40,869 nt of DNA from a virus (lineage: Duplodnaviria > Heunggongvirae > Uroviricota > Caudoviricetes): IMG/VR virus record IMGVR_UViG_2541047754_000003; one strand, written 5' to 3'. The notes under the pieces are model-generated. The model worked only from the letters and a program-made list of their open reading frames with translations. It did no database searches and was not told the origin of the DNA. Shown in pieces: positions 35,692 through 36,146 of the stretch. The position numbers and the translations under genes are program-made. Position 1 is the stretch's first letter; every line of letters begins with the position of its first letter.

Positions 35692-35844
35692 ATGCAGTGG
35701 AAAATCATCAACGGTTGGTACTGCGTTACTGCATGCGGATTCATGAGCTGGAAGTTCCGCACCTTACAGGAAGGCATTAAGTGGGCTTTCGTCAGCAAAG
35801 AAGCTCGCGATGTGGCCAACGATAACGAGATATGGGAGGGCTGA
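35692..35844 (+). CDS. Small ORF (50 aa), first gene of rightward early operon
   Basis: ATG 35692 with GAGGT RBS; Trp/Cys-containing; not in ORF track. Confidence 0.35.
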   Translation: MQWKIINGWYCVTACGFMSWKFRTLQEGIKWAFVSKEARDVANDNEIWEG

Positions 35845-35846
35845 TA

Positions 35847-36146
35847 ATGAACGTTAATCAGCAGAAAAATCTTCAAAAAATCATGCTGGCATTCGACAAG
35901 GACTACTGCCTGTCAGAACAGCTATATGACCGACAAGTTGAACTGATTGAGAGTATCCGGCTTCATCAACTGGCCTCAACTTTCGACGTTGTAACAGGCA
36001 AAGGCGTTCGCCAGGAAGTACTGGAGGCCGCTAAAGACAGCCCTGAGTTCGAAGAACTAATGGATGCCTACCGGCGCGAGGCAATGGCAATTATCGCCCG
36101 CTGGGATCTGGCGGATCGGATTGATGGGCAGAGGGACGCGGCATGA
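35847..36146 (+). CDS. Hypothetical early protein (99 aa)
   Basis: ATG 35847 with GGGAGGG RBS; stop overlaps exonuclease start (ATGA). Confidence 0.6.
   Translation: MNVNQQKNLQKIMLAFDKDYCLSEQLYDRQVELIESIRLHQLASTFDVVTGKGVRQEVLEAAKDSPEFEELMDAYRREAMAIIARWDLADRIDGQRDAA

Follow-up and report, generated by a model that had tools for sequence, protein, structure and literature searches.

We analysed a window of 40,869 nucleotides (the whole stretch of DNA considered here; IMG/VR virus record IMGVR_UViG_2541047754_000003; Duplodnaviria, Heunggongvirae, Uroviricota, Caudoviricetes), which is an Escherichia coli prophage of the Uetakevirus type (phiV10/epsilon15-like), focusing on two small genes, ORF-A and ORF-B, the second of which resembles the lambda Gam protein. 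An original prediction, made from the sequence alone, had placed two small genes of 50 and 99 amino acids (aa) at 35692-36146, and both the coordinates and the descriptions were correct. The features of the locus are the following:

34954-35538, + strand: repressor gene, 194 aa with two helix-turn-helix (HTH) domains (Pfam HTH_3, PHROG 8), orthologue of phiV10 gp40.
35559-35578, + strand: terminator-like hairpin plus T run, of the intrinsic type and annotated as a terminator in phiV10, which ends the repressor transcript.
35596-35610, no strand assigned: operator-like palindrome TTACCTTATGGGTAA, 5' of the -35 element and kept in the Klebsiella relative.
35630-35658, + strand: sigma-70-like early promoter (TTGACA-17 nt-AATCAT, 10/12 matches).
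35658-35672, no strand assigned: second operator-like palindrome TTACCTCAACGGTAA, overlapping the -10/transcription start region.
35692-35844, + strand: ORF-A, 50 aa, ATG start (PHROG 898).
35847-36146, + strand: ORF-B, 99 aa, ATG start (PHROG 856).
36143-37042, + strand: recombination exonuclease of the YqaJ/lambda-Exo family, 299 aa (Pfam YqaJ, 1.3e-23; TIGR03033; PHROG 434).
37052-38074, + strand: single-strand annealing protein of the RecT family (Pfam RecT, 4.5e-57; PHROG 148).

The ORF-B ATG at 35847 is preceded by a GGAGGG ribosome-binding site (the 99-aa reading was used here; the program-made list of open reading frames, ORFs, holds a longer reading of 104 aa from 35832). The junction between ORF-A and ORF-B is of 2 nt in the window and a GTGA overlap in Klebsiella, and the ORF-B TGA overlaps the exonuclease ATG at 36143 (ATGA), which bears out the earlier statement that the 99-aa gene is coupled to the exonuclease start. 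Both genes are under purifying selection: the ratio of non-synonymous to synonymous substitutions (dN/dS) of ORF-B was approximately 0.12-0.55 where computable (most pairs 0.12-0.3), and that of ORF-A, window compared with the Klebsiella relative, was approximately 0.2 (proportion of synonymous differences, pS, 0.62; non-synonymous, pN, 0.24), with differences at 10 of 13.8 synonymous and 3 of 64 non-synonymous sites in codons 1-26. Both proteins matched a PHROG family end to end (ORF-A, PHROG 898, E 2e-38; ORF-B, PHROG 856, E 5e-55), each family being labelled 'unknown function'. They correspond to gp39 (ORF-A) and gp38 (ORF-B) of phiV10, hypothetical in that record and annotated there as similar to epsilon15 gp37/gp36. 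ORF-A was present in 36 phage records and ORF-B in 36, and the division by genus was the same for both (Escherichia 16, Salmonella 12, Klebsiella 4, Enterobacter 3 and one without a name). The junctions, the purifying selection, the end-to-end PHROG matches and the joint occurrence therefore indicate that ORF-A and ORF-B are real genes and not chance ORFs. The 801-nt region around them matches two E. coli chromosomes at 100% identity, is found in 559 of 5426 complete E. coli genomes, and shows 95-97% nucleotide identity to phiV10, TL-2011b, ZX5 and others. Proteins of the ORF-B type are hypothetical in all 25 listed of the 36 phage records and in all the E. coli records listed, and the literature yielded no mention of either gene under its sequence or locus tag.

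ORF-B encodes an acidic protein (pI 4.71; 19 D+E vs 13 K+R) whose structure model is all-helical (helices 3-45, 56-63 and 66-98). A word-indexed search of 5.8 billion proteins returned 51 matches, all enterobacterial, the full-length ones at least 73% identical. When 1.84 billion representatives were searched exhaustively with a profile, 31 cluster representatives came back; all of these belonged to one small family, they included divergent full-length members (31-53% identity), and none of them offered a link to any named family. Three alignments were used in the comparisons below: A3 (15 diverse ORF-B relatives), A1 (shallow, close relatives of ORF-B) and A4 (26 aligned lambda Gam relatives). 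Searched against the PDB sequences, the A3 profile found lambda GamS (2uuz, 5mbv; E 0.1; query 30-86 vs chain 33-91), and no other natural protein of related biological role was matched over a single stretch; the designed-PPR and designed repeat proteins that ranked above it were repeat/low-complexity artefacts with no passing stretch. When the A3 members were scanned one by one against Pfam, PF06064 (Gam) was the best of all families (E 0.0042, in 1 of the 15 members). When A3 and A4 were aligned in hhalign, 56 columns were paired with the residue order kept (probability 86%, E 5e-6), ORF-B 31-86 lying opposite GamS 33-90, including DSPEFEELMDAYRRE vs DDVEFQERMAEHIRY, and the motif common to the two proteins is [DE]-F-[EQ]-E. 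The score of this alignment was 36, vs a mean of 11.5 (SD, standard deviation, approximately 2.4; maximum 21) in 400 column shuffles and 20 in the reversed control; the probability stayed at 78-88% in leave-one-out alignments, and at 65.5% in the same register with the four best-linking members removed.

The same relationship appeared in the searches with hidden Markov models (HMMs). The Gam HMM scored 24.8 bits against the ORF-B family member P0084, and placed ORF-B on top of the 495 stop-to-stop ORFs of the window, none of which is a canonical Gam. The ORF-B HMM matched 120 of the 120 Gam proteins retrieved (top scores approximately 19-22 bits) and, among about 30 small early-operon proteins of lambda, P22, phi80 and Rac, scored with GamS alone (14.8 bits; the others at most 2). 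The profiles of both ORFs gave no match with the Rac proteins RacC, YdaE, YdaF, YdaG and KilR; with lambda Kil, CIII, Ral, Ea10, N, orf28, orf60a and orf63; with P22 Abc1, Abc2, Arf, Kil, C3, 17, Ral, 24 and others; or with phi80 Kil, gp40, gp43 and Mog. For RacC, whose gene precedes recE, the ORF-B HMM gave -1.4 bits and the Gam HMM -1.2. Taken together, these comparisons make it likely that ORF-B is homologous to lambda Gam in its C-terminal domain (residues 31-86). The earlier statement that no homology could be recognised thus stands for the 50-aa ORF-A, which had no informative match, and has to be revised for ORF-B, where profiles provide the link to the Gam C-terminal domain.

Other results weigh against the assignment of ORF-B to a Gam-type function. 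Alone, ORF-B had no Pfam or NCBIfam match at E values up to 1 and no PDB sequence match, and it does not reach the threshold of the curated PF06064 model. Residues 1-30 of ORF-B were not alignable to Gam, and a forced global alignment had no confidence there. The structure prediction and fold search that had been proposed as a check yielded an all-helical model of poor quality for ORF-B, with which the fold searches returned no match, and an AlphaFold2 model of ORF-A with a pLDDT of 54, which was unusable. With the shallow A1 alignment, hhalign gave 8.6% in a different register. This A1 alignment paired ORF-B 8-42 (..IMLAFDKDY.., window 35870-35972) with Gam 58-92 (..ITRAFDDDVEF..) at a noise-level score of 21, a pairing that could have arisen by chance or could hint faintly at a repeat within these helical proteins.

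On the same side stands the distribution of Chi octamers (GCTGGTGG), of which the window contains eight, all on the - strand and none on the + strand:

9979, 11353, 13185, 13600, 18583, 22051, 26652 and 39998, - strand: Chi octamers.

Shuffling synonymous codons within genes gave an expectation of 2.7 Chi (SD 1.3), and eight were reached in 0 of 300 shuffles. Among lambdoid phages, at least four Chi on the active strand were reported in 80 of 93 phages without an anti-RecBCD gene vs 24 of 202 with one (PMC12315714, Table 1), a rule reported for lambdoid phages and of uncertain weight for the window, a podovirus of another lineage. The Chi enrichment keeps in play the alternative, discussed below, that ORF-B carries a Gam-like scaffold directed to another target.

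The genomic context provided further information about ORF-B. In every case its homologues are immediately followed by a recombination gene whose start codon overlaps their stop codon, and the type of partner varies: YqaJ in the window, in the Klebsiella loci L002/L003 and in L008; a RecE-RecT fusion in phiV10; a PD-(D/E)XK nuclease of the DUF3799 family in L005, L006 and phiv142-3; and RecT alone in L007. A mosaic junction lies at 36146-36149, which is the ORF-B stop/exonuclease start, and identity to most phiV10-type phages (phiV10, TL-2011b, ZX5 and others) stops there; past this junction, the phiV10/TL-2011b/ZX5 group carries a RecE-type or RecE-RecT fusion gene (the fusion, in phiV10) in place of YqaJ and RecT. 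Locus L006 is lambdoid and has an S24-type repressor; there, KilR is followed by the ORF-B homologue, the nuclease and RecT, an arrangement that mirrors lambda kil-gam-bet-exo. Several loci also contain a homologue of phi80 Mog. In the phi80 record, gamL is described as a 'gam-like host nuclease inhibitor; toxic without Mog', and is directly preceded by agt/mog, described as 'anti-toxin for Gam; modifier of Gam'. In the Uetakevirus phiv142-3, whose ORF-B is 96% identical to that of the window, a gene of 344 aa lies between ORF-A and ORF-B, and its product matches phi80 Mog from end to end at 55% identity (E 4e-97). A Mog homologue is likewise located directly upstream of the ORF-B homologue in L005 (45% identity, E 3e-53) and in L008. 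These genes, encoding charged proteins of 337-344 aa and hypothetical in the annotations, are:

L011 (phiv142-3), 1459-2493: Mog-like protein.
L005, 3980-4993: Mog-like protein.
L008, 1-411: Mog-like protein.

Of the 559 E. coli genomes carrying the module, 35 have a Mog homologue inserted between the two ORFs, and tblastn detected no Mog homologue in the window.

The position of ORF-A and ORF-B in the operon was as originally described, that is, they are the first genes after the early promoter, with the sigma-70-like site at 35630-35658 upstream followed by ORF-A and ORF-B. The two palindromes at 35596 and 35658, of the form TTACC-N5-GGTAA, bracket this promoter, and the -35 element, the -10/operator block and the palindromes are conserved in the Klebsiella relative, where the flanking sequence has diverged. 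There are 15 sites of this form at up to one mismatch in the window, 10 of them exact (0.6 expected): 2949, 6178, 7298, 7391, 8432, 25538, 28731, 28749, 32491, 32553, 34499, 34836, 34884, 35596 and 35658. Nine are intergenic according to a greedy gene call, and two more, at 8432 and 28749, are placed at the edge of a gene or close to where one starts. We infer that TTACC-N5-GGTAA is the binding site of the two-HTH repressor, and the dispersed sites look like an operator set through which the repressor would control many prophage promoters. Overexpression of the identical repressor of ZX5 (ORF21) blocked lytic growth (PMC9782041).

Downstream (3') of RecT are an AlpA-type excisionase/regulator, a PerC-like activator, an MT-A70 methyltransferase, DUF1382 and, on the opposite strand, a P4-type integrase. 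By its gene order (repressor, terminator, operators/promoter, small genes, recombination genes, AlpA-type excisionase, integrase), the early operon matches the lambda PL (leftward) operon and would be its functional counterpart; in lambda, cI is transcribed in the same direction as PL, as are the repressor and the early operon of the window. The promoter previously called 'rightward' is indeed on the + strand as shown, but this describes the orientation of the window and not the promoter type, the gene order being that of the leftward PL. The same place in the operon is held by kil-gam in lambda, kil...mog-gamL in phi80 and kilR...recE in Rac, in agreement with the view that both genes occupy the slot of the lambdoid inhibitors. 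As for the kinds of inhibitor that had been suggested for this slot (Gam, Abc or Kil), the Gam type is plausible for ORF-B by its profile similarity, whereas relationships to Abc1, Abc2 and Kil were tested and not found.

Based on these results, we propose that ORF-B may be a divergent Gam-type inhibitor of RecBCD, a function to which we give an even chance. In lambda, the GamS dimer sits on the duplex-DNA site of the RecB arm, and one N-terminal helix fills the channel for 3' single-stranded DNA (3'-ssDNA) (PMC5218532). In the window, upon induction or infection, the repressor would leave the two operators and ORF-B would be made along with the YqaJ exonuclease and RecT. ORF-B would then dimerise via its conserved C-terminal domain, and the dimer, acting as an acidic DNA mimic, would bind the DNA-entry face of RecBCD and block the entry of DNA. 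As an outcome, linear and rolling-circle phage DNA would be protected, and double-strand ends would be left to the phage Exo/RecT.

ORF-B and lambda GamS are similar in length (99 vs 98 aa), in pI (4.7 vs 5.0) and in being all-helical, and lambda gam, as ORF-B, is located directly upstream of exonuclease/annealing genes in a repressor-controlled early operon. They differ in that Gam's N-terminal helix (MNAY..DRIE..W.RHYQQ), the plug of the RecB 3'-ssDNA channel, is not alignable in ORF-B, in that no long isoform of the GamL type is evident for ORF-B, and in that the Pfam/NCBIfam Gam models do not recognise it. The phi80 GamL gene resembles ORF-B in being a small Gam-type gene directly upstream of recT/exo, and its direct upstream neighbour is Mog, as is the Mog homologue of ORF-B in sibling Uetakevirus phages; the window itself differs from phi80 in having no Mog gene. 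The ORF-B HMM scored 1.5 bits with phi80 GamL, which is no direct similarity. GamL keeps the Gam N-terminal helix (MNAYLTYDRIEE..W) and not the C-terminal domain, and ORF-B does the reverse: phi80 GamL (L010 5555-5836) and lambda gam (L004 1817-2233) have in common just the N-terminal helix (MNAYLTYDRIEERRW..., 15.4 bits over residues 1-30). The sharing of the N-terminal part by GamL and of the C-terminal domain by ORF-B points to a construction of Gam-type proteins from two modules that can be exchanged. P22 Abc1/Abc2, also anti-RecBCD proteins, are of the same size class and located in a recombination module, and scored at most 2.0 bits with both ORF profiles, with no Pfam match.

A first alternative is that ORF-B shares with Gam nothing beyond an oligomerisation scaffold, and that its distinct N-terminal helix acts on another target: another host nuclease (for example SbcCD), a helicase-nuclease defence system, or the phage exonuclease/RecT, of which ORF-B would be an accessory factor. 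The end of detectable homology at residue 31, with the N-terminal 30 residues being family-specific, is consistent with this alternative, as are the tight packing of the ORF-B gene, by overlapping stop and start, against whichever recombination gene follows, and the Chi-rich genome, which suits a phage leaving RecBCD partly active (PMC12315714). However, the partner nuclease comes from three families and is missing in L007, which argues against a specific physical partner; the association with Mog parallels that of phi80 gamL; and the conserved part of ORF-B is the part of lambda Gam that contacts the RecB arm (PMC5218532). We regard this alternative as somewhat unlikely.

A second alternative, that the likeness of ORF-B to Gam is a chance one between short acidic helical proteins and that ORF-B is an unrelated early protein, we judge unlikely. 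It is compatible with the weak library-wide E-values (the 0.1 vs the PDB and the 0.0042 of one member vs Pfam), with an hhalign probability below 95% and with the silence of the fold searches. Yet three different searches picked Gam from 177,635 PDB sequences and 24,736 Pfam families, the alignment keeps the same residue order, survives leave-one-out and stands approximately 10 SD above the 400 shuffles, which were composition-matched, and neither the position nor the Mog context depends on the sequence signal.

A more speculative possibility, to which we attach a low probability, is that the Gam-type family is modular, with an N-terminal helix that inserts into the target and a C-terminal dimer domain, each exchanged between members independently of the other (lambda Gam would be N1-C1, GamL N1-C2 and ORF-B N2-C1). 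The N2 helix of ORF-B would then aim the scaffold beyond the RecB channel, at another nuclease or at a helicase-nuclease defence system, and ORF-A, whose distribution in phage records matches that of ORF-B, could be its functional partner. An N2 helix with another target would explain the presence of ORF-B in a Chi-rich phage seemingly reliant on RecBCD.

ORF-A (5 Trp, 2 Cys; pI 6.1) is a conserved orphan in the Kil slot. In alignment A2, which comprises relatives from E. coli, Salmonella, Klebsiella and Enterobacter, 17 of its first 25 residues (MQWKIINGWYCVTACG.MSWKFRTL) are invariant, and the C-terminal 20 residues are variable. The window protein showed no Pfam, NCBIfam or PDB relationship; a Pfam scan of 20 family members gave scattered matches, each in one to three members, and neither Lambda_Kil (PF06301) nor KilR (PF27398) matched in any of the 20. 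Lambda Kil, P22 Kil, phi80 Kil and Rac KilR all scored 0 bits or below with the ORF-A HMM, and no Kil, CIII, Ral, N, Arf or Abc protein showed similarity to ORF-A, nor did Rac YdaE/YdaF/YdaG. Three other candidate assignments were dropped: a zinc/metal or disulfide site formed by the Cys pair (C11 is Leu in the L005 homologue, which is outside A2); a YdaF/DUF2188-type 'F.T..EA..W' domain, suggested by a likeness seen by eye (-0.7 bits); and the 'Bagel' propeller matches in the PDB, which were repeat/low-complexity artefacts with no passing stretch. ORF-A invariably follows the promoter as the first cistron, also where a Mog-like gene has been inserted after it, indicating that it is separable from ORF-B and is not a Mog replacement.

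The most likely role of ORF-A, which we hold weakly and by analogy of position, would be that of a small protein binding a host target; confidence in a Kil-like or other host-directed role is low because position is the sole pointer to ORF-A function. More specifically, ORF-A might inhibit host cell division in the way of Kil or act on a different host protein as a small inhibitor, being made first after derepression. Its position fits that of lambda kil (47 aa), which overlaps gam; the KilR gene of L006 is directly upstream of the ORF-B homologue, in the place of ORF-A; and ORF-A is small, with strong purifying selection on residues 1-26. Lambda Kil, Rac KilR and P22 Kil, small early proteins directed to FtsZ, are of a size comparable to ORF-A, which is placed immediately ahead of the Gam-type gene. 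Against this stand the lack of sequence similarity to the Kil proteins of lambda, P22 and phi80 or to Rac KilR, the lack of Pfam Kil matches in the 20 members, the different charge (pI 6.1 vs 9.6 in lambda Kil) and the unusable structure model, and we consider a Kil-type role doubtful. It is very unlikely that ORF-A is a regulatory element of the operon (a leader peptide, small autoregulator or antiterminator) and not an effector: its invariable first place, also ahead of the Mog-like insertion, and the coupling of its stop to the next start would agree with such a role, but it has no Arg-rich N-type motif and no similarity to lambda N or P22 gp24, there are no terminator-like sites needing antitermination on the + strand at 35692-38600 and no Rfam family at 34000-39700, so that the features of a lambda N-type antiterminator (Arg-rich motif, downstream terminators) were not found for ORF-A or the operon, and the selection at the amino-acid level across the N-terminal half is more typical of a folded protein.

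Other features were recorded elsewhere in the window. A tRNA-Arg gene (anticodon TCT) is located among the structural genes (25875-25951, + strand). Three adjacent tandem-repeat arrays at 33766-33905 (periods 12, 24 and 18; 2.4-3.1 copies; 89-100% matches) fall within the replication-initiator gene (33387-34202, - strand) and encode repeated NGMLNDPK/NGNEPE peptides; they look like origin iterons within the initiator gene, comparable to lambda O.

A Gam analogue before exo/recT would be no great surprise to a specialist, and ORF-B is probably a new, unannotated variant of the Gam-type protein and not a new category, as judged from its profile similarity; ORF-A is one more well-defined, strongly constrained orphan. 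A survey of lambdoid recombination modules recognised four types of anti-RecBCD proteins (Gam, GamL, Abc2 and MuGam; PMC12315714), none of which is the ORF-B type. Should ORF-B prove to work as an inhibitor, it would represent a fifth sequence type of anti-RecBCD protein that has gone unnoticed, one carried by approximately 10% of the complete E. coli genomes and by the whole phiV10/epsilon15 group and labelled hypothetical in each database consulted. This would change the sorting of recombination modules into those 'with' and 'without' anti-RecBCD function, and would bear on which of the defences that sense RecBCD inhibition (retron Ec48, OLD, Gabija-type) are triggered by these phages. A putative Gam-type gene together with enriched, co-oriented Chi makes this prophage a concrete test case for the reported Chi-or-inhibitor rule, and ORF-B would provide a natural variant for dissecting the roles of the two halves of Gam.

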